This document shows positions 6,670-28,857 of a stretch of 64,000 nucleotides of DNA, piece after piece; the stretch's first letter is position 1; the number at the start of each line of letters is the position of its first letter. Source of the DNA: an uncultured delta proteobacterium (GTDB lineage Bacteria; Desulfobacterota; Binatia; JACPRU01); NCBI GenBank assembly GCA_963745025.1, contig CAVUWD010000016.1:160001-224000 (forward strand), in the 5' to 3' direction. The notes beneath the pieces are model-generated. The model did not search any database. It was not told the origin of the DNA and saw nothing but the letters and a program-made list of their open reading frames with translations. Position numbers and translations under genes: made by a program.

Positions 6670-7401
6670 ATGCGCGGAACGCTCTACGCCGGTACTTCGG
6701 GCTTCGCTTACAAGACGTGGAAGCCCGGTTTCTATCCGCCACGGCTCAAGAATCGCGACATGCTGCGCTACTACGCCGAGCGCCTTCCGTCGGTCGAGAT
6801 CAACAACACGTTCTATCGGATGCCGAGCGAGAAACTGCTCGCCGGCTGGCGCGATGAGACGGCCGAGAGCTTCGTGTTCACGCTCAAGGCTCCGCGACGG
6901 ATCACCCACATCGCGAGGCTGCGCGACGTCGCCGACCCCCTCGGCTATTTCCTGCAGAGCGCGCGCTCGCTCGGCCGGCGCCTTGGCTGCATCTTCTTTC
7001 AGTGCCCTCCATATCTTCGCTACGACGCAGCTCTGCTCGACAGCTTCCTCGCCGCGCTCCCCGACGACGGCCTGCGCTTCGCCATGGAGTTCCGCCATGC
7101 GAGCTGGGGCGATGGAGAGGCGCGCGCCAAGCTGGCGGCGCGGTCGATCGCTTGGTGTACGGTTGACGCGGAGGACGGCGCGCCCCGCGTGGAGCAAACG
7201 GCGCGCGATTTCGTCTATCTTCGGTTACGCAAGCCCGCCTACGACGAAGCCTCGCTCGCTTCGTGGGCCGACCACCTCGATGCGGTCCTCGATCACGGCG
7301 TCGATGTCTACGTCTATTTCAAGCACGAGGACGATCCGGCCGGCATCGAATATGCCCGCATCCTGCTCCGCCGCCTCGTGGTAGGATGGCAGGCACCATG
7401 A
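6670..7401 (+). CDS. DUF72 domain protein
   Basis: YAGTSGFAYKTW, VEINNTFYRMP, FTLKAPRRITH, FQCPP, MEFRH, YLRLR. Confidence 0.9.
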   Translation: MRGTLYAGTSGFAYKTWKPGFYPPRLKNRDMLRYYAERLPSVEINNTFYRMPSEKLLAGWRDETAESFVFTLKAPRRITHIARLRDVADPLGYFLQSARSLGRRLGCIFFQCPPYLRYDAALLDSFLAALPDDGLRFAMEFRHASWGDGEARAKLAARSIAWCTVDAEDGAPRVEQTARDFVYLRLRKPAYDEASLASWADHLDAVLDHGVDVYVYFKHEDDPAGIEYARILLRRLVVGWQAP

Positions 7402-11069: not shown

Positions 11070-11741
11070 GTGATCCGTCTCTACCATGTCTCCAAGGTCT
11101 ATCCGCCGCGGTTCACCGCGTTGAGCGACGTCTCGCTCGCGATCGAGCCCGGCGAATTCGTGTTCCTGACGGGCCCGAGCGGGGCGGGCAAGACGACCCT
11201 GCTTCGGCTGCTGCTCGGCGCCGAGACGCCGACCGTGGGACAGGTCGTGATCGGTGGCAGGAACCTGGTGCGCCTCGGGCGCCGGGGGATCGCCAAGTTG
11301 CGCCGCTCGACGGGAATGGTGTTCCAGGACGCCAAGCTGCTTCCCGGGCTCCCAGTGCTCGACAACGTCGCATTGCCCGCCGAGGCGGCGGGCGAATCAT
11401 CGAAGGAGGCGCGCCGCAAGGCATTTGCGCTGCTCCGTGACCTCGGATTGAAGGACTTGGTGCGCCGCTACCCGCGTTCCTTGTCGGGGGGAGAGCAGCA
11501 GCGAGTGGCGCTCGCGCGTGCGCTCGTCAACGAGCCTGGGTTACTCCTCGCCGACGAGCCGACCGGCAACTTGGACGAAGAGTCGGCGCGCCGGGTCGTG
11601 GAGCTCATGGTGCGCGCCCATTCCGGAGGGGCGACGGTCGTGCTCGCAACACACGACCCGCAGCTACTGGGTGCGGTGTCCGGTCGGCAGATCACGCTGC
11701 GAGCGGGACACTTGGTCGACGGTGGGGCCGCGGCCGAATGA
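11070..11741 (+). CDS. ftsE: Cell division ATP-binding protein FtsE
   Basis: [37 protein letters not shown]; adjacent to ftsX. Confidence 0.92.
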   Translation: MIRLYHVSKVYPPRFTALSDVSLAIEPGEFVFLTGPSGAGKTTLLRLLLGAETPTVGQVVIGGRNLVRLGRRGIAKLRRSTGMVFQDAKLLPGLPVLDNVALPAEAAGESSKEARRKAFALLRDLGLKDLVRRYPRSLSGGEQQRVALARALVNEPGLLLADEPTGNLDEESARRVVELMVRAHSGGATVVLATHDPQLLGAVSGRQITLRAGHLVDGGAAAE

Positions 11742-12649
11742 GACGGTTCCACCCCTTCTATTTCGTCCGTCGCGCGCTCGCCAACCTGCGCGGCGCCCCG
11801 CGGCCCGCCGCGGTCACCGCTTCGACGATCGCGATCGCGATCTTCCTGTTTGGTGCGTTCTGGCTCTTCGGCGAGAACCTCTACCGTACGCTGGTCGGCT
11901 GGGCGGGGGAGGGAGATCCCCTGGTCGTCTACGCGAAGCGAGGCCTGCCGCCGGCGACGACCGAGGCGCTCGCCCGCCAGATCCAGACGCAGCCGGAGGT
12001 GGCGCGGGTGCGCGTGATTCCCCCCGCGGAGGGGCTGAAGGATCTCCGCCGCACGCTCGGCAGCGACGCCGACGTTCTCGAAGGAATCGATGCCGAGGTG
12101 CTGCCGGCCATCGTCTCGGTCGGGCTGCGCCGAACGACGCTCGACCCGACGGTCACGGAGCTGCTCGCCGCCCGCATCCGGCACTTCGAAGGCGTGGAGA
12201 CGGTCGATTCGCAGGTCGCGTGGATCGAGCGCTTCGCCAAGCTCGGCCGCTGGCTCATGTGGGTGGGCTTCGGCTGGGCCCTGATCCTTGGCTTCGGCGC
12301 GTTGCTGGTGATCGGGAACTCGGCGCGCTTGGCGGCGCTGACCCGCAAGGAGGAGATCGAGGTCCTGCGGCTCGTTGGAGCGTCGGAAGCCTTCATCGTT
12401 GTGCCGTTCTTCATCGAGGGTGCGATCCAGGGACTGGCCGGATCGCTGCTCGGGACGGGCGCGCTCGCGGCGGCGTTCTTCGCGCTCGAGCGATCCCTCG
12501 AGGATGGCTCGCTTCTCCCCTTGTTCACACCCTCGCTCGCGTTTCTCGAGCCGCGTTTGATCGGCGTTCTGCTCACGGCCGGGCCGCTTCTCGGAGCAAT
12601 CGGCAGCGCCGGCTCGGCGCGCCGCTACCTCCGCGGGGTGGAGCTGTGA
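11738..12649 (+). CDS. ftsX: Cell division permease FtsX
   Basis: EIEVLRLVGAS..FIVVPFFIEG, 4-TM layout. Confidence 0.92.
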   Translation: MRRFHPFYFVRRALANLRGAPRPAAVTASTIAIAIFLFGAFWLFGENLYRTLVGWAGEGDPLVVYAKRGLPPATTEALARQIQTQPEVARVRVIPPAEGLKDLRRTLGSDADVLEGIDAEVLPAIVSVGLRRTTLDPTVTELLAARIRHFEGVETVDSQVAWIERFAKLGRWLMWVGFGWALILGFGALLVIGNSARLAALTRKEEIEVLRLVGASEAFIVVPFFIEGAIQGLAGSLLGTGALAAAFFALERSLEDGSLLPLFTPSLAFLEPRLIGVLLTAGPLLGAIGSAGSARRYLRGVEL

Positions 12650-13758
12650 GGCCTGCTCGCGGGCTCTGGCTGCCGACACTCGCGACGCTCTCGGTAGCGA
12701 CCGCGATCGGCGCCGGAGACTCCGCCGATCGCCTGAAGGAAGTCGAGCAAGAAATCCAGCGGACCGAGGAAGAGGCGAAATCCATCGAAGCGCAAGCAGA
12801 AGGGGTGCTCGGCGAGATCGATACCGTCGATCGCTCGATCAGCGACCACGCGCGGCGCCTGCGCGATCTGACCACCGAGATCCGCGCGGCCCAGGCGCGC
12901 ATGGATGCCGTCGAACGCACGATTGCCAAGCTCGACGCCGAGGAACCGCGCCTGCACGCACGCTTCGTCGCGCGAGCCCGGGGTCTCTATCGTCTGCGCC
13001 AGCGAGGGCTCGCACCAATCGTCTTCCAAGCGCCGCGCGATTGGGGCGAGGCCACTCGCTACCAGCGAAGCCTCGAAGCGGTGCTCGCATACGACCACGC
13101 GCTCGCAGCGGAGCTGCGCCGCAATCGTGGCGAGGCGGCCGCCGCCCGGGAGCAGGCGGCTTCCGAAGCGGCGACGCTCGCGGCACGCCGCAAGGACAGC
13201 GCTCGGGAGCTCGAATCCCTCCGTGCCGAGCGGGCCAAGAAGCAAACGATACTCGCGTCGCTGCGAGGCGAAGGGCAGAAGCGCACGCGTCTTCTCGACG
13301 AGCTCAAATCCTCGGCGGAGAAGCTTCGGGAGCTGATCGAAAAAGAGGAAGCGTCAAAGACGCCGCCGTTCGAACCTCCCGCGGGTTCGGCCGTGCACAT
13401 GCGGTTCCCGATCCGCTCGGTGGGCGAGGCGGTCACCTCGGTCCGTAACGGCGTCGAGATCCGGGCTGCGGCAGGGACGTCGATTCAGGCGGTGAAAGCC
13501 GGACGCGTGGTCTTTGCCGGCTGGTTTGCCGGCTACGGCAAAATGGTGATTCTCGATCACGGCGACCATCTCTACACGGTGTACGGCTACGCGGAGAGTC
13601 TGCTCGTCGAGGCCGGCCGGGTCGTCGACGCCGGCGATCTCATCGCCACCGTCGGCGTGACCGGACCCGTCATCGCGCCGAGCCTCTACTTCGAGATTCG
13701 CGACCACGGCGTGCCGCGCGACCCGGCCTCCTACATCCCCGCGCTCGCACGGAAGTGA
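12646..13758 (+). CDS. envC: Murein hydrolase activator EnvC (coiled coil plus degenerate M23)
   Basis: Signal peptide, long coiled coil, GRVVFAGWFAGYGKMVILDHG, LYFEIR; zinc ligands absent (RNGVE, YGY). Confidence 0.88.
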   Translation: MRPARGLWLPTLATLSVATAIGAGDSADRLKEVEQEIQRTEEEAKSIEAQAEGVLGEIDTVDRSISDHARRLRDLTTEIRAAQARMDAVERTIAKLDAEEPRLHARFVARARGLYRLRQRGLAPIVFQAPRDWGEATRYQRSLEAVLAYDHALAAELRRNRGEAAAAREQAASEAATLAARRKDSARELESLRAERAKKQTILASLRGEGQKRTRLLDELKSSAEKLRELIEKEEASKTPPFEPPAGSAVHMRFPIRSVGEAVTSVRNGVEIRAAAGTSIQAVKAGRVVFAGWFAGYGKMVILDHGDHLYTVYGYAESLLVEAGRVVDAGDLIATVGVTGPVIAPSLYFEIRDHGVPRDPASYIPALARK

Positions 13759-13795
13759 GCGCAGTCGTCCTCACTCTCACGGGGCAGTGTAACGT

Positions 13796-14035
13796 CTCAG
13801 TCTCGGGTGCGAGCGCTCGAAATTCCTGATGCGCTGGATCTTCCGGTCGGCCCGTGCTCGGGTCGACCGGAAGATCCAGGCACCGCGCGGAAGCGCGGAA
13901 GGCAATAGACCAACTCGCGGGTTATTACCTCCCGCGCTCCGCGCGGTTGCGGTCGGTTGTGATCGACCCGAATACGGGCCGATCACAACCGACCGCGCTC
14001 TTCGTTGTCCCGAAGCACTCGCGGCGAAGACTGAG
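13796..14035. repeat. Three-hairpin cloverleaf palindromic element, copy A
   Basis: Closing IR ctcagtct/agactgag; hairpins at 13834-13879, 13882-13947 and 13949-13996. Homologous to 27320-27572. Confidence 0.9.
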
Positions 14036-14059
14036 CTCTCACCGAGCGTCACCATCGCG

Positions 14060-14088
14060 TTGACTGGCTGCGGACCCTCGGTTAAGAC
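14060..14088 (+). promoter_or_regulatory. Putative sigma70 promoter of lysS (near-leaderless)
   Basis: TTGACT-17bp-TAAGAC; ATG 9 bp downstream with no SD. Confidence 0.5.
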
Positions 14089-14097
14089 AACGGCCCA

Positions 14098-15582
14098 ATG
14101 CCCGATTCCGCCAGTGATCTGCTGGTCGCGCGCCGGCGGAAGCTCGAGGCGCTGCGTGCACGCGGCGGTGTTGCCTTTCCGAACGATTTCGTCCCCGATC
14201 GGACGACCGGCGAGGCACGCACGCGCTTCGGCGATGTGAGCGCCGAGCGTCTGGCGGATGCGAAAGAGACGGTGCGCCTCGCGGGACGCATCGTCGGCAT
14301 GCGCGACTTCGGCAAGGCGGCATTCTTTCACTTGCAAGATCGCAGTGGCCGGCTGCAGGTCTACGTCAAGCGCGAAGAGCTCGGCGAGGAAGGATTCGCG
14401 GTCTACCGGCACTGCGACGTCGGCGACGTCGTCGGTGTGGAAGGCGAGCTCTTTCGCACGCGAACCGGGGAGCTGACCCTGCTCGCGCGCCGCTTCCGAA
14501 TCCTCACCAAGTCGCTTCGGCCGCTTCCCGAGAAGTGGCACGGTCTCGCCGACACCGAGATCCGCTATCGGCAGCGCTACCTCGACCTGATCGCCAACCC
14601 GCAAGCCGCCGAGGTCTTCCGCAAGCGTGCCGCGATCATGCAGAAGATTCGCGACTACTTCGCCGCACGCGATTTCATCGAGGTCGAGACGCCGATGATG
14701 CAGCTCACCGCCGGGGGCGCCGCGGCCCGGCCCTTCGTCACCCACCACAATGCGCTGGATCTCGATCTCTACCTGCGCATCGCACCCGAGCTGTATCTGA
14801 AGCGTCTCGTGGTCGGCGGATTCGAGCGCGTCTTCGAGCTCTCCAGGGTGTTTCGCAACGAAGGCGTGTCGACGCAGCACAATCCCGAGTTCACGCTCCT
14901 CGAGTTCTACATGGCGTATGCGGATTACCACAGGCTCATGGAGATCACCGAAGAGCTCTTCTGCGAGCTCGCGCGGGAAGCGGCCGGCGGTCTCCGACTG
15001 CCGTGGGGAAAGCACGAGATCGATCTCACGCCCCCCTGGAAGCGGCTCACGCTGCGCCAGGCGGTGCGCAGCCACGCCGGAGCTCGTGACGCGGACCTCG
15101 CCTCGGAAGCGTCGCTACGGGCGTTTGCCGCGGGTCGGGGCCTGGCGCTCGACAAGAGCTGGGGCGCGGGCAGGATTCTTCTCGAGCTCTTCGAGGCCTT
15201 CGCCGAAGACAAGCTCGTCTCGCCGACCTTCGTGTTGGGATATCCGGTGGAGGTCTCACCTCTTGCGCGGCGCAATCCGGACGACCCCGAGATCACGGAC
15301 CGCTTCGAGCTCTACATCGCCGGACGGGAGATGGCGAACGCGTTTTCCGAGCTGAACGATCCCGACGACCAGCGCCGCCGTTTCGAAGCCCAGGCACGCG
15401 CCAAGGCCGCTGGCGACGAGGAGGCGCAGGAGATGGATGAGGACTTCGTGCTCGCGCTCGAGCACGCCATGCCGCCGACCGCGGGAGAAGGCGTGGGGGT
15501 CGATCGATTGGTGATGATGCTCACCAATCAGTCGTCGATCCGCGACGTGATCCTCTTTCCGCTGCTTCGCCCGCCTGCCTGA
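14098..15582 (+). CDS. lysS: Lysine--tRNA ligase (class II)
   Basis: LPEKWHGL, YRQRYLDL, EVETPMM, LRIAPELYLKRL, FRNEG, HNPEFT, IRDVILFP. Confidence 0.98.
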   Translation: MPDSASDLLVARRRKLEALRARGGVAFPNDFVPDRTTGEARTRFGDVSAERLADAKETVRLAGRIVGMRDFGKAAFFHLQDRSGRLQVYVKREELGEEGFAVYRHCDVGDVVGVEGELFRTRTGELTLLARRFRILTKSLRPLPEKWHGLADTEIRYRQRYLDLIANPQAAEVFRKRAAIMQKIRDYFAARDFIEVETPMMQLTAGGAAARPFVTHHNALDLDLYLRIAPELYLKRLVVGGFERVFELSRVFRNEGVSTQHNPEFTLLEFYMAYADYHRLMEITEELFCELAREAAGGLRLPWGKHEIDLTPPWKRLTLRQAVRSHAGARDADLASEASLRAFAAGRGLALDKSWGAGRILLELFEAFAEDKLVSPTFVLGYPVEVSPLARRNPDDPEITDRFELYIAGREMANAFSELNDPDDQRRRFEAQARAKAAGDEEAQEMDEDFVLALEHAMPPTAGEGVGVDRLVMMLTNQSSIRDVILFPLLRPPA

Positions 15583-24878: not shown

Positions 24879-26623
24879 AACTCTACCGCCGCCTGCTCGG
24901 CTACCTGCGGCCATACGTCTGGCCCCGCTTCACGCTGGCCGTGATCTGCATGGTGTTCTACAGCTCCACGAACGGCGTGATGCCGTATCTCGTGCGCAGC
25001 GTCTTCGACGACGTCTTCTTGCAGAAGAAGGAGTGGGCGCTGCGCGTGCTGCCGGTTGCGATCGTCACCGTCTTTCTGTTTCGCGCCGTGATGAGCTTCA
25101 ACCAGAGCTATCTGATGGAGTGGATCGGGCAGCACGTGATCGCCGACATCCGCAGTCAGCTGAACGCGCACTTCCAGCGCCTGTCGCTCTCGTTCTACAA
25201 CCGCACGCCGACCGGTACGCTGCTCTCGCGCATGACCAACGACGTCGAGCTCATGCGCAGCGCGCTCACGGATGCGGTCGCGTCGGTGATGAAAGACCTG
25301 ACGTCGCTCCTGGTGCTGCTCGCGGTCGCGTTTTTCATGGATTGGACGCTCGCGCTGATCGCCTTCGTCGCGTTCCCGCTCACGGTGCTGCCGATCTTGC
25401 GATTGTCACGGCGCTTGCGGAGGGTCACCCGCAAGGGTCAGGTGACGCTCGGCAACCTGGCGACGCTGCTCCAGGAGACGATTCAGGGGAACCGCGTCGT
25501 CAAGGCCTTCGGCATGGAGGACTACGAAATCCGCCGCTTCGATGCGGAGAGCGAGCGGCTCGTCGGGCTGTACATGAGGGCGGCACGCATCAAGGCCTTC
25601 ACCACGCCGATGATGGAAGTGCTCGCCTCGTTCGGCATCGCCGGAGTCGTCTGGTACGGCGGCTCGAGCGTGATGGCCGGTGGGCGCACGCCCGGCTCGT
25701 TCATGGCCTTTCTCACGGCGATGCTGCTGCTCTACGATCCGTTCAAGGGTCTGACCAAGACCAACAACGTCGTGCAGCAGGGACTGGCGGGGGCGAGCCG
25801 CATCTTCGAGATGCTCGACCAAGCGAGCGACGTGGTGGAACGGCCCACGGCGACCGCTCTGCAGGGCTTTCGCGAGGGCATCCGCCTCGAAGACGTGACC
25901 TTCCGTTACGAGGCGGAGCCGGTGCTCCGCGAGGTGAACCTGGAGATTCGCCGTGGCGAGGCCGTCGCGCTGGTCGGCCGCAGCGGCTCGGGCAAGAGCA
26001 CGCTGGCGGATCTGATTCCACGCTTCTACGACGTCACAGGAGGTCGGATCACGGTCGACGGACGGGATGTGCGCGACCTGACGCTGGCATCGCTTCGTGC
26101 CGAGATCGCGATCGTCACGCAGTTCACCTTTCTCTTCAACGACACCGTGCGAACCAACATCGCCTACGGCGACGTCGGCACCTCGCTGGAGCGGATCGAA
26201 GCCGCGGCGCGCGCCGCCAACGCGCACGACTTCATTTGCGAGCTGCCGCAGGGCTACGACACGGTGATCGGTGAGCTAGGCGTCAAGCTTTCCGGAGGGC
26301 AGCGCCAGCGCGTGGCGATCGCACGCGCTCTCCTCAAGAACGTGCCGATCCTGATCCTCGACGAGGCGACCTCGGCTCTCGATAACGAGTCCGAGCGGCT
26401 GGTCCAAGAGGCGATCGAACGGCTGATGGCGGGTCGCACGACGCTGGTCATCGCCCACCGCCTCTCGACCATCCGCAACGCCGACCGGATCGCGGTTCTC
26501 GACCGCGGGCGCATCATCGAGGAAGGGACGCATGCGGAGCTCCTCGATCGCGGCGGCGAGTATCGCCGGCTCTACGACATGCAGTTCCGCGACGAGCCCC
26601 GCGCCGCGGTGGCCGGGGAATGA
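24875..26623 (+). CDS. msbA: Lipid A flippase MsbA
   Basis: YRRLLGYLRPY, ABC TM domain, GRSGSGKST, LSGGQRQR, LDEATSALD. Confidence 0.93.
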   Translation: MKLYRRLLGYLRPYVWPRFTLAVICMVFYSSTNGVMPYLVRSVFDDVFLQKKEWALRVLPVAIVTVFLFRAVMSFNQSYLMEWIGQHVIADIRSQLNAHFQRLSLSFYNRTPTGTLLSRMTNDVELMRSALTDAVASVMKDLTSLLVLLAVAFFMDWTLALIAFVAFPLTVLPILRLSRRLRRVTRKGQVTLGNLATLLQETIQGNRVVKAFGMEDYEIRRFDAESERLVGLYMRAARIKAFTTPMMEVLASFGIAGVVWYGGSSVMAGGRTPGSFMAFLTAMLLLYDPFKGLTKTNNVVQQGLAGASRIFEMLDQASDVVERPTATALQGFREGIRLEDVTFRYEAEPVLREVNLEIRRGEAVALVGRSGSGKSTLADLIPRFYDVTGGRITVDGRDVRDLTLASLRAEIAIVTQFTFLFNDTVRTNIAYGDVGTSLERIEAAARAANAHDFICELPQGYDTVIGELGVKLSGGQRQRVAIARALLKNVPILILDEATSALDNESERLVQEAIERLMAGRTTLVIAHRLSTIRNADRIAVLDRGRIIEEGTHAELLDRGGEYRRLYDMQFRDEPRAAVAGE

Positions 26624-27294
26624 AGGGAAGCCGCCGTGCGCGGATTCGGGTTGCGTTTCTTGGGTTCGCCGCCCGCTGCCTCTACGGGCTGGTCAAGAAC
26701 ACCGTGCGCCCGGTGGTGGGTCCGGACGCTCGCGAGGTGCTCGCGGCCTTCGAGAAGAACGAGCGCGTCGTGATCGCGTTCTGGCACGGTCAACTGGCGA
26801 TGCTGCAGGCGGCGTACCGCGGTCGCGGTGCCGGGATTTGCGTTCAAGTGAGCCATCACAGCGACGGTGAGATCATCACCCGTGCCGTCCGTCCGTTCGG
26901 CATCCGCGCGGCGCGCGGCTCGGCCACGCGCGGCGGACTGGCGAGCGTGCGCGAGATGCTCGAAGCGCATCGCCAGGGCTACGACCTGGCTCTCGCGCCC
27001 GATGGCCCGCGCGGTCCGATTCACCGTGCCAAGCCAGGAGCGATCCGGCTCGCGCAAGCGACGGGGGCGCGTCTTTTTCCCGTGGCGTGCGCTCCACGAC
27101 GGGCATTGGTGTTCCGAAGCTGGGACCGCTTCATTGTGCCGCTGCCGTTCACGCGGGTTTATTACGTCGTCGGGACGCCGCTGTCGGTTCCGCACGGCGT
27201 CGATGCGGAAGCGATCGAACGCGCGAGACGGACTCTTGAAGAGGAGCTCTGCCGCGCCACCTTGGAAGCCGAGCGGCGCGCCGGGCGGCGGTGA
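26620..27294 (+). CDS. lpxJ: DUF374 lysophospholipid acyltransferase (LpxJ-like)
   Basis: AFWHG, S.HSDGE, RGSATRGG, APDGPRGP, SWDRF.VPLPF. Confidence 0.85.
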   Translation: MKGSRRARIRVAFLGFAARCLYGLVKNTVRPVVGPDAREVLAAFEKNERVVIAFWHGQLAMLQAAYRGRGAGICVQVSHHSDGEIITRAVRPFGIRAARGSATRGGLASVREMLEAHRQGYDLALAPDGPRGPIHRAKPGAIRLAQATGARLFPVACAPRRALVFRSWDRFIVPLPFTRVYYVVGTPLSVPHGVDAEAIERARRTLEEELCRATLEAERRAGRR

Positions 27295-27319
27295 TGAGGA
27301 CCGAGGCATCGTCACGTTC

Positions 27320-27572
27320 GCATCCCCTCACTCTTTGCCTCGAGCGCTCGAGATTCCGAAAGCGCTGGATTCTCCGGTCGGCCCGTACACGGGTCGACCG
27401 GAAAATCCAGCCACCGCGCGGAGCGCGGAACGCAATAACCCGCGAGTTGGTCTATTGCCTTCCGCGCTCTGCGCGGTTGCGGTCGGTTGTGATCGACCCG
27501 AGTACGGACCGATCACAACCGACCGCGCTCTCCGCCGTTTCGATTCATTCGAGGCGAAAACTGAGGGGATGC
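27320..27572. repeat. Three-hairpin cloverleaf palindromic element, copy B (middle hairpin inverted)
   Basis: Closing IR gcatcccctca/tgaggggatgc; hairpins at 27365-27410, 27413-27477 and 27479-27526. Confidence 0.9.
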
Positions 27573-27618
27573 CCACCCTCGTGCGTTTCGGGTGCGGCCG
27601 CGAGGCTGCGCTGAGGAC

Positions 27619-28857
27619 ATGTACGCGCTCTACAACCTACTGCTCGCGGTGCCTGGGCTCGCGGTGGCCCCGGCGCTCCGGCTGCCGCGCTTCCGTGCGC
27701 ATCGGGAGCGGCTCGGAGTGTATGCGCCCGAGCTCCTCGAGCGAGTGCGCGGGCGGAAGGTGCTGTGGCTTCACAACGCCTCGATCGGAGAGCTCAAGGC
27801 GTCTCGACCGCTTCTGCGCCGCCTCCGTGAGGAGCTCGTCGAGTGGCGAATCGTCCTCTCCACGACGAGCATCACGGGGCGCGACCTGGCACGAGAGCTG
27901 GCCGAGGCGGACGGTGCGGTGCTGCTGCCGCTCGACTTCCCGGCATCCGTCGAGCGTGCCGTCGATGCGATCGCGCCTTCGCTCTTCGTGTTCACCGAAA
28001 CCGAGATCTGGCCGAACTTGCTGCGCGCGCTTCGCCGGCGGGGCGTTCCCGCCGTGCTCCTCTCCGGACGCGTGTCGCCTCGCTCGTTCCGTCGCTACCT
28101 CTGGATTCGTTCCTTTCTGCGGCGCGTGCTGCAAGACGTGGCGTTGTTGGGCATGCAGAGCGAGGCGGAGGCGGAGCGCATTCGCGCGCTCGGCGCGCCG
28201 CCGGAGCGCGTGCGGGTCACGGGCAGCTTGAAGCTCGAGGCGATCGCCGAGCCGCGGGCGCTGGCGATCGACAGTCCGCCGGGATTCCTCTGGATCGCGG
28301 CCTCGACGCACGCCGGCGAGGAAGATGTCTGCGCGCGCGTGTTCGGTCGGTTGCGCGAGCGGTTCGCCGGGCTCCGGCTGCTGCTGGCTCCTCGGCATCT
28401 CGAGCGGTTGCCGGCGGTGGAAAGCCTCCTGCGCGCGCAAGGGCTCGATTTCATCCGACGCACGGATCTGCGCGAGAACCGTTGGACGGGCGAGCCTCCG
28501 GTGTTGCTGCTCGACACGCTCGGAGAGCTCGCCGGCCTCTACGCGGGAGCCGCCGCGGCATTCGTCGGCGGCACGCTCGCTCGCGTGGGTGGGCACAATC
28601 TCCTCGAGCCGGCCCGAGTCGGTGTGCCGGTGCTCTACGGACCGCACGTGGAGAACGTCGCGGCGCTCGCCGACGTGCTCGATTCGAGCGGCGGCGGATT
28701 CCGCGTCGCCGACGAAGCGGATCTCGCCGCGAAGCTCGAGGCGCTGCTCGACGATCCCGAGCTCTGCGCGCGTACGGGACGCGCGGCGCAGGCAACGGTT
28801 GCATCGGTCGGAAGCGTCGAGGCGAGTCTGCGCGCCGCGCTCGAATGTCTGGCGTGA
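27619..28857 (+). CDS. waaA: Kdo transferase WaaA
   Basis: WLHNASIGE, ETEIWPN, AASTHAGEE, APRHLER, LDTLGEL, GGHNLLEPA. Confidence 0.95.
   Translation: MYALYNLLLAVPGLAVAPALRLPRFRAHRERLGVYAPELLERVRGRKVLWLHNASIGELKASRPLLRRLREELVEWRIVLSTTSITGRDLARELAEADGAVLLPLDFPASVERAVDAIAPSLFVFTETEIWPNLLRALRRRGVPAVLLSGRVSPRSFRRYLWIRSFLRRVLQDVALLGMQSEAEAERIRALGAPPERVRVTGSLKLEAIAEPRALAIDSPPGFLWIAASTHAGEEDVCARVFGRLRERFAGLRLLLAPRHLERLPAVESLLRAQGLDFIRRTDLRENRWTGEPPVLLLDTLGELAGLYAGAAAAFVGGTLARVGGHNLLEPARVGVPVLYGPHVENVAALADVLDSSGGGFRVADEADLAAKLEALLDDPELCARTGRAAQATVASVGSVEASLRAALECLA

Follow-up and report, generated by a model that had tools for sequence, protein, structure and literature searches.

A family of MITEs with IS66-type ends and a hairpin-rich interior in an uncultured GC-rich bacterium

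The Correia and Chunjie elements are among the described bacterial miniature elements (MITEs), and the transposition mechanism of the IS66 family of insertion sequences (IS) is poorly known. For QMITE2 of Coxiella and bacterial MITEs more generally, a review describes small, non-coding, multi-copy and intergenic sequences with terminal inverted repeats (TIRs) and direct repeats of 7–9 bp, which are predicted to fold very stably through pairing of the TIRs (PMC10969869). Within the IS66 family, ISDge4 of the ISBst12 group is reported with the TIRs GTGACTACTCAGCA and GTAACTGCTCAGCA and direct repeats of 8 bp (PMC12898284), and the same length is listed for the direct repeats of ISPpa5a and ISPpa7 (PMC3281130). 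The titles and abstracts of the literature searched, a body of text separate from ISfinder and TnPedia, describe no IS66-derived MITE, and in passages of related papers IS66 elements are listed apart from MITEs or IS66 is left out. A further point of comparison is provided by REP/BIME sequences and REPINs, which are dispersed intergenic palindromes in mosaic combinations and in either orientation.

The element analyzed here is of an ordinary kind, a MITE, with an unusually hairpin-rich interior. Its termini of the GTAA/GTGA...CTCAG type and its 8-bp direct repeat resemble those of IS of the ISBst12 group such as ISDge4 (PMC12898284), but it lacks a transposase, is 254 bp long and has only its 15 terminal nt in common with a partner IS. 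In contrast to a MITE with a single long stem, the interior of this one is built of three separate long perfect hairpins in a GC-rich (66%) host, and copies differ from one another by loss, duplication or flipping of these modules. It resembles REP/BIME sequences and REPINs in its dispersed palindromes, but differs from them in having TIRs and 8-bp target-site duplications (TSDs) and in the lack of association with a RAYT gene. Taken as a whole, the element is very probably a MITE whose ends are recognized by an IS66-family DDE transposase acting in trans.

Two members of the family, copies A and B, and no others occur in the window, the 64,000-nt stretch analyzed, which is contig C16:160001-224000 of assembly G000 (5.65 Mb, 20 contigs, 66% GC; 92.65% complete, 7.6% contamination). 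A preliminary description of the window had reported two homologous inserts, each with three abutting hairpins and an outer stem, and the minimum-energy folds of both copies have precisely this form. Against 200 dinucleotide shuffles per copy, none of which folded as well, copy A reached -166.8 kcal/mol (shuffle mean -100; z -13.3) and copy B -178.2 kcal/mol (shuffle mean -97; z -15.9). The hairpin sizes and the 1–2-nt spacing given there were borne out (46/66/48 nt in copy A, with gaps of 2 nt between H1 and H2 and 1 nt between H2 and H3), the outer-stem words that it quoted are present and co-vary between the copies, and the neighboring genes are the pairs it named, M23/EnvC-like–LysS and DUF374–WaaA. 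Its boundaries hold for copy B (27320-27572), while those for copy A (13796-14035) were slightly too narrow when judged by the termini (Table 1). The two copies align end to end with the exception of the H2 center, where they are reverse complements of one another. The nearest relatives of the window's LysS (61% similarity) belong to Candidatus Binatia and 'Deltaproteobacteria' MAGs.

Table 1. Coordinates of the two window copies, their parts and neighboring genes (window positions) and of the IS copies elsewhere in G000 (contig positions)
Feature	Position	Strand	Remarks
MITE copy A	13789-14042	.	254 bp; envC-like/lysS spacer; nhmmer model 2-251 of 253; ends from TIR scan
Copy A left TIR	13789-13803	+	GTAACGTCTCAGTCT; 1 mismatch to GTAANGCCTCAGTCT; IS end = GTAAGGCCTCAGTCT
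Copy A H1	13834-13879	.	46 nt; 21-bp stem, 4-nt loop; core TCGGCCCG-N4-CGGGTCGA
Copy A H2	13882-13947	.	66 nt; central nested palindrome; loop in common orientation
Copy A H3	13949-13996	.	48 nt; 22-bp stem; core = reverse complement of H1 core
Copy A right TIR	14028-14042	-	degenerate, 3 mismatches
MITE copy B	27320-27572	.	253 bp; DUF374 (lpxJ-like)/waaA spacer; nhmmer match
Copy B left TIR	27320-27334	+	variant GCATCCCCTCACTCT; right end has same variant
Copy B H1	27365-27410	.	located by eye
Copy B H2	27413-27477	.	65 nt; located by eye; center reverse-complemented (flip) relative to copy A
Copy B H3	27479-27526	.	located by eye
Copy B right TIR	27558-27572	-	reverse complement = GCATCCCCTCAGTTT
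Copy B target duplication, left, eroded	27312-27319	.	partner 27573-27580; 6/8 with end wobble
M23 peptidase, EnvC-like	11518-13758	+	upstream of copy A
Lysine-tRNA ligase LysS	14098-15582	+	downstream of copy A
DUF374 protein	26620-27294	+	upstream of copy B
Kdo transferase WaaA	27592-28857	+	downstream of copy B; start conserved with G001 = ATG at 27619
1,882-bp IS copies (n = 3)	C19:80230-82111; C6:484414-486295; C6:486304-488185		100% identical; C6 = tandem pair

What closes the cloverleaf as an outer stem is the terminal inverted repeat GTAAYGCCTCAGTCT, whose two copies pair with one another in a single-strand fold. Both ends co-vary because one transposase must recognize both, and the closing helix itself need not be under selection. 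The TIRs are 15–21 bp in length, and many full copies start with GTAAYGCCTCAGTCTT and finish with its reverse complement; members of a second subfamily start with GTGATGCCTCAGTCTTCGCC and end in ...GGGTCAC. Allowing at most one mismatch, the 15-mer GTAANGCCTCAGTCT has 48 matches in the genome (26 and 22 by strand), compared to 0 on the one strand of the reversed genome used as a control. Inward-facing TIR pairs 60–3000 bp apart numbered 32, nine of which are bounded on the outside by identical 8-mers (seven MITEs and two IS copies), and the outside 8-mers of three further MITE pairs agree at 7/8 positions. Among the 34 near-full-length elements, with ±3 nt allowed in the placement of the ends, 15 have a TSD matching at 7/8 positions or better, against 1/34 in an offset control, and the other 19 match at 3–6 positions. 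All complete copies of subfamily 2 (7/7) have a TSD of 6–8/8 if a small wobble is allowed. Such duplications would arise from insertion at an 8-bp staggered cut.

In both window copies the ends are variant and the duplications are eroded (3/8 for copy A and 5–6/8 for copy B). Copy B has the variant GCATCCCCTCA at both of its ends, and part of the TIR divergence reflects subfamilies, which differ in their TIR variants and have their hairpins in common. For copy A, a 7-nt direct repeat, CTCTCAC, was considered as the TSD and dropped, as the canonical length of 254 bp sets the right end at 14042; with that end, the extra 8 nt at 13781-13788 fit an eroded duplication.

The family extends far beyond the window. 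A blastn search of G000 with copies A and B returned 341 HSPs at 85 loci, and a search by five separate modules produced 66 clusters, 32 of which contain both H1 and H3. With nhmmer and a model built from eight copies, 103 non-overlapping matches resolve into 93 elements or fragments on 17 of the 20 contigs, with 34 near full length. Full-length copies measure 243–278 bp, too short to encode a transposase. Almost all of the elements (91/93) lie outside crude ORF calls, and their tandem, convergent and divergent contexts (58/18/15) are proportioned much as in the background (1528/460/439), a rough comparison given that the ORF caller covers 58% of the genome. The preliminary description had called the sequence a dispersed non-autonomous mobile element, and the copy number, the TIRs and TSDs and the insertions that are absent from a congener establish this. 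It had not recognized the architecture as a named type, yet size, TIRs, TSDs, copy number, empty sites and a matching IS identify the element as a MITE.

A search of G000 for PF03050 (DDE_Tnp_IS66) returned three identical genes and one fragment; within the window there is no IS66- or Y1-family match, the two families checked, in keeping with the earlier remark that no transposase is present there. The three genes reside in the 1,882-bp IS copies, which have perfect 19-bp TIRs, GTAAGGCCTCAGTCTCCGT, and 8-bp duplications, AACGATCG and CTTCTGGA. The IS ORF, for a transposase of 468–490 aa, matches PF03050 and zf-IS66 and scores 218.5 bits against NF033517 (NCBIfam 'IS66 family transposase', cut-off 180). 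MITE and IS ends agree at 14/15 terminal bases, and at 20/21 in the MITE copy at C11:478235. Beyond the 15 terminal nt no homology was found between the MITE interior and the IS, and since only these terminal bases are common to both, the MITE is not a simple deletion derivative of the IS. The contigs that bear the IS, C6 and C19, carry MITE copies too. G000 thus combines a MITE family whose ends are of the IS66 type (ISBst12-like) with an IS that matches them, and from this correspondence of sequence the transposase acting in trans would be that of the 1,882-bp IS of G000 or of a close relative. Because the IS copies are identical and the MITE copies are 80–91% alike, most of the MITE insertions are older than the IS copies now present. 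A well-defined pair, a MITE and an IS66-family IS that agree in their ends and in the 8-bp length of their duplications, is hereby documented in an uncultured GC-rich bacterium.

Several details of the IS66-like sequences were recorded alongside. On C6 (484414-488185) two identical IS copies lie head to tail and are spaced by exactly 8 bp (CTTCTGGA), with the same 8-mer after the second copy, an arrangement that looks like insertion immediately beside an existing copy. Upstream of the transposase, a 105-aa ORF (L033:684-1001, on C19) that begins just past an AT-rich palindrome with a 9-bp stem has a borderline match to DUF6788 (27.0 bits, cut-off 27.2), and a second small upstream ORF has no family match. 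The partial IS66-like fragment at C2:71435 was rejected as a partner, as it has neither a matching TIR nor clear inverted repeats. In JACQEO01, a groundwater 'Deltaproteobacteria' MAG, 10 contigs (L162–L171) have the 19-nt IS end ~120 nt from their termini, the pattern seen when a multi-copy IS breaks up an assembly.

The insertions are polymorphic between congeners. None of the 10 insertions of G000 that were examined (A, B and eight others, drawn from three regions) is present at the orthologous place in the sister species G001, and the family marks recent genome change. At site A, the G001 flanks are contiguous but for 17 nt, and local alignments assign G000 262 extra bases (13781-14042), equal to 254 + 8. 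At site B, the G001 flanks abut and a single copy of the target, TCATCCTG, is present, while G000 has 259–261 extra bases (27315-27573 absent from G001), corresponding to 253 + 8. At six of the eight further sites, 42–77 unaligned bases in G001 stand against 237–743 in G000. Of the remaining two elements, one is at the edge of a 1,450-bp stretch specific to G000 and the other is replaced in G001 by 305 bp without a match to the MITE model.

Among 41 genomes searched, G000 included, MITE matches occur only in G000, G001 (27 matches), G005, which represents another genus of the same family (two matches), and G040 (one weak match of 33 nt). Elements with the same TIR, 8-bp TSD and hairpins occur in G001. 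In G005 the copies share this TIR and have a duplication of 8 bp (TGCGATCT), and the stems of their hairpins differ in sequence. An IS with these ends was not found in G001 (82% complete), though it has MITE copies of its own; the nearest IS66-family transposase in that assembly is 31–32% identical and is without a matching TIR. IS copies are often missing from MAGs. The exact H1-core pattern had 0 matches in a wider contig collection, from which the genome itself and its near relatives may be left out. It should be noted that G005 carries a related hairpin MITE (C308, ~7062-7312) in its own envC-like/lysS spacer, where none is present in the congener G001. This copy resembles the other G005 copies and is thus most likely an independent insertion, which suggests recurrent insertion into the same spacer.

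The interior of the element follows a distinct symmetry. The 20-nt consensus cores of H1, TCGGCCCGTACTCGGGTCGA, and of H3 are exact reverse complements of each other, and with inverted H1 and H3 cores, a self-symmetric H2 and TIRs the whole element is two-fold symmetric. Three long palindromes in this arrangement suggest a fold-back origin, in which one end and a subterminal hairpin would have been folded back to yield the element. The counterpart of a conserved G·T in H1 (pair 17/30) is a conserved A·C in H3 (pair 18/31), an asymmetry that gives each hairpin a direction. The order H1 core–H2–H3 core is recognized by motif in 25/93 elements, and others lose, duplicate or flip modules. Of the 47 elements that have an H2 loop, 7 carry it flipped, including copy B and a G001 copy. 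By eye, a flip of H3 was confirmed only for C11:74151; at C19:113092 an apparent H1 core at the H3 position, returned by a regular expression, was discarded as a flip because it is explained by two point changes instead.

The hairpins appear to be kept better than the ends. In 26 aligned copies, which were picked through a hairpin-rich query, divergence from the consensus is 7% for the hairpins and 21–30% for the TIR 14-mers, and mean pairwise identity, subject to the same hairpin-biased selection, is 0.90 for H1, 0.92 for H3 and 0.83 for H2 against 0.58–0.70 for ends and linkers. Ends that are less conserved than hairpins are unlike the prediction of a plain MITE model, although the copies were chosen by a hairpin-dominated query. 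In the same alignment, RNAalifold predicts 58 pairs, nine of which have compensatory double changes, and among distinct H1 (n = 17) and H3 (n = 23) sequences there are 11 compensated cells each, next to 16 and 26 that are uncompensated. Template switching at quasi-palindromes can yield compensation in stems without selection. Such switching would account for the compensated stems and flipped loops, but not alone for the slower divergence; intrastrand template switching and/or selection on master copies may have both made and kept the perfect stems and the flipped loops. The compensated stems, flipped loops and loss or duplication of modules provide a natural data set on the dynamics of palindromes.

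Other explanations of the cloverleaf have to be weighed against a MITE mobilized by an IS66-family transposase. HUH/RAYT elements make no 8-bp target duplications. The preliminary description had proposed a REPIN or REP-type element that a RAYT or other HUH (Y1) transposase would move in the form of folded single-stranded DNA, and the long perfect palindromes and two PF01797 (Y1_Tnp) matches in G000 (C13:188500-188823 and C11:419866-420189) would suit that mechanism, but it is contradicted by the 8-bp TSDs and by DDE-type TIRs that match an IS66-family IS. Neither Y1-like gene adjoins a copy of the element: the nearest members are ~5.3 and 5.7 kb from the gene on C11 and ~27 kb from that on C13, all more than 5 kb away. 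Nor is the hairpin core dispersed above chance apart from the TIR-bounded family, as MITE elements account for 98 of its 122 matches and the other 24 stand against 16 chance matches in the reversed genome. We consider transposition by a Y1 enzyme extremely improbable. At 342 and 398 aa, the open frames that contain the two Y1_Tnp matches (IS200/RAYT-like) are of unusual length for the family. A family of structured non-coding RNA genes, the other proposal made earlier, would make the cloverleaf a functional RNA fold, and the high stability of copies A and B and the compensatory changes in 9/58 consensus pairs count in its favor. However, the fold is without strand information, since the palindromes form as well on one strand as on the other, the intergenic contexts of the copies resemble the background, and the TIRs, TSDs and empty sites are those of transposition. 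No Rfam family matches the window at gathering thresholds, and at a permissive E-value the element returns only generic miRNA-hairpin models (19–29 bits against cut-offs of 45–150). A scan of 13600-14200, around copy A, identified 0 promoters and 0 terminators. An RNA gene family is accordingly a very improbable reading of these data.

A third possibility is compatible with a MITE mobilized by an IS66-family transposase and holds that the three hairpins are functional cargo under selection, either because transposition needs them as subterminal binding or cruciform sites or because the host makes use of the RNA or DNA structure, as in mRNA processing or stabilization of the REP/BIME kind. The lower divergence and higher identity of the hairpins relative to the ends, the compensated changes at several stem positions, the three-hairpin layout with other stem sequences in another genus, and hairpins that are common to subfamilies whose TIR variants differ all point in this direction. 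Against it, the ascertainment bias of a hairpin-dominated query may inflate the difference in divergence, compensation may arise by template switching, and many members that lack one or two hairpins, e.g., forms of 147 bp and 199 bp, still have TIRs and TSDs. Functional cargo is on balance unlikely. In a more specific and still less probable version, the three-hairpin core would be a functional module of its own, retained in different subfamilies and genera as the ends recognized by the transposase diverge, with H1 and H3 serving as subterminal sites of opposite orientation and H2 as a flippable center. If so, the module could fold into a cruciform or four-way structure in the DNA that transposition in the IS66 family (ISBst12 group) requires, or alternatively serve as an RNA processing or insulating signal that the host exploits inside operons.

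A MITE with IS66-type ends removes the apparent oddity of the locus, for the 'four-way junction' is a MITE drawn as a single-strand fold and the co-varying outer stem consists of its predicted transposase-binding ends. What is left as a curiosity is the modular, flip-prone, hairpin-rich interior, apparently conserved above the ends. Copies A and B are also of interest for their placement inside the spacers of essential gene pairs (envC-like/lysS and DUF374/waaA) without an obvious terminator. Both spacers lie between genes on the same strand and are ~60–80 nt long in G001, and with such short same-strand spacers the two copies are probably co-transcribed with their neighbors. Among public sequencing runs none contained more than 0.30 of the words sampled; three of them and one RNA run yielded short contig pieces that did not span the element, and the absence of RNA reads on it carries no information about expression. 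Copies in operon spacers, A and B included, would in this way place long double-stranded RNA segments in mRNA. Elsewhere in the family, two copies of subfamily 2 (C5:173246-173511 and C16:85416-85684) contain the same extra palindrome of ~30 nt (...GGTGCTGTCCTAAGGACAGCACC...) within the H2 loop.
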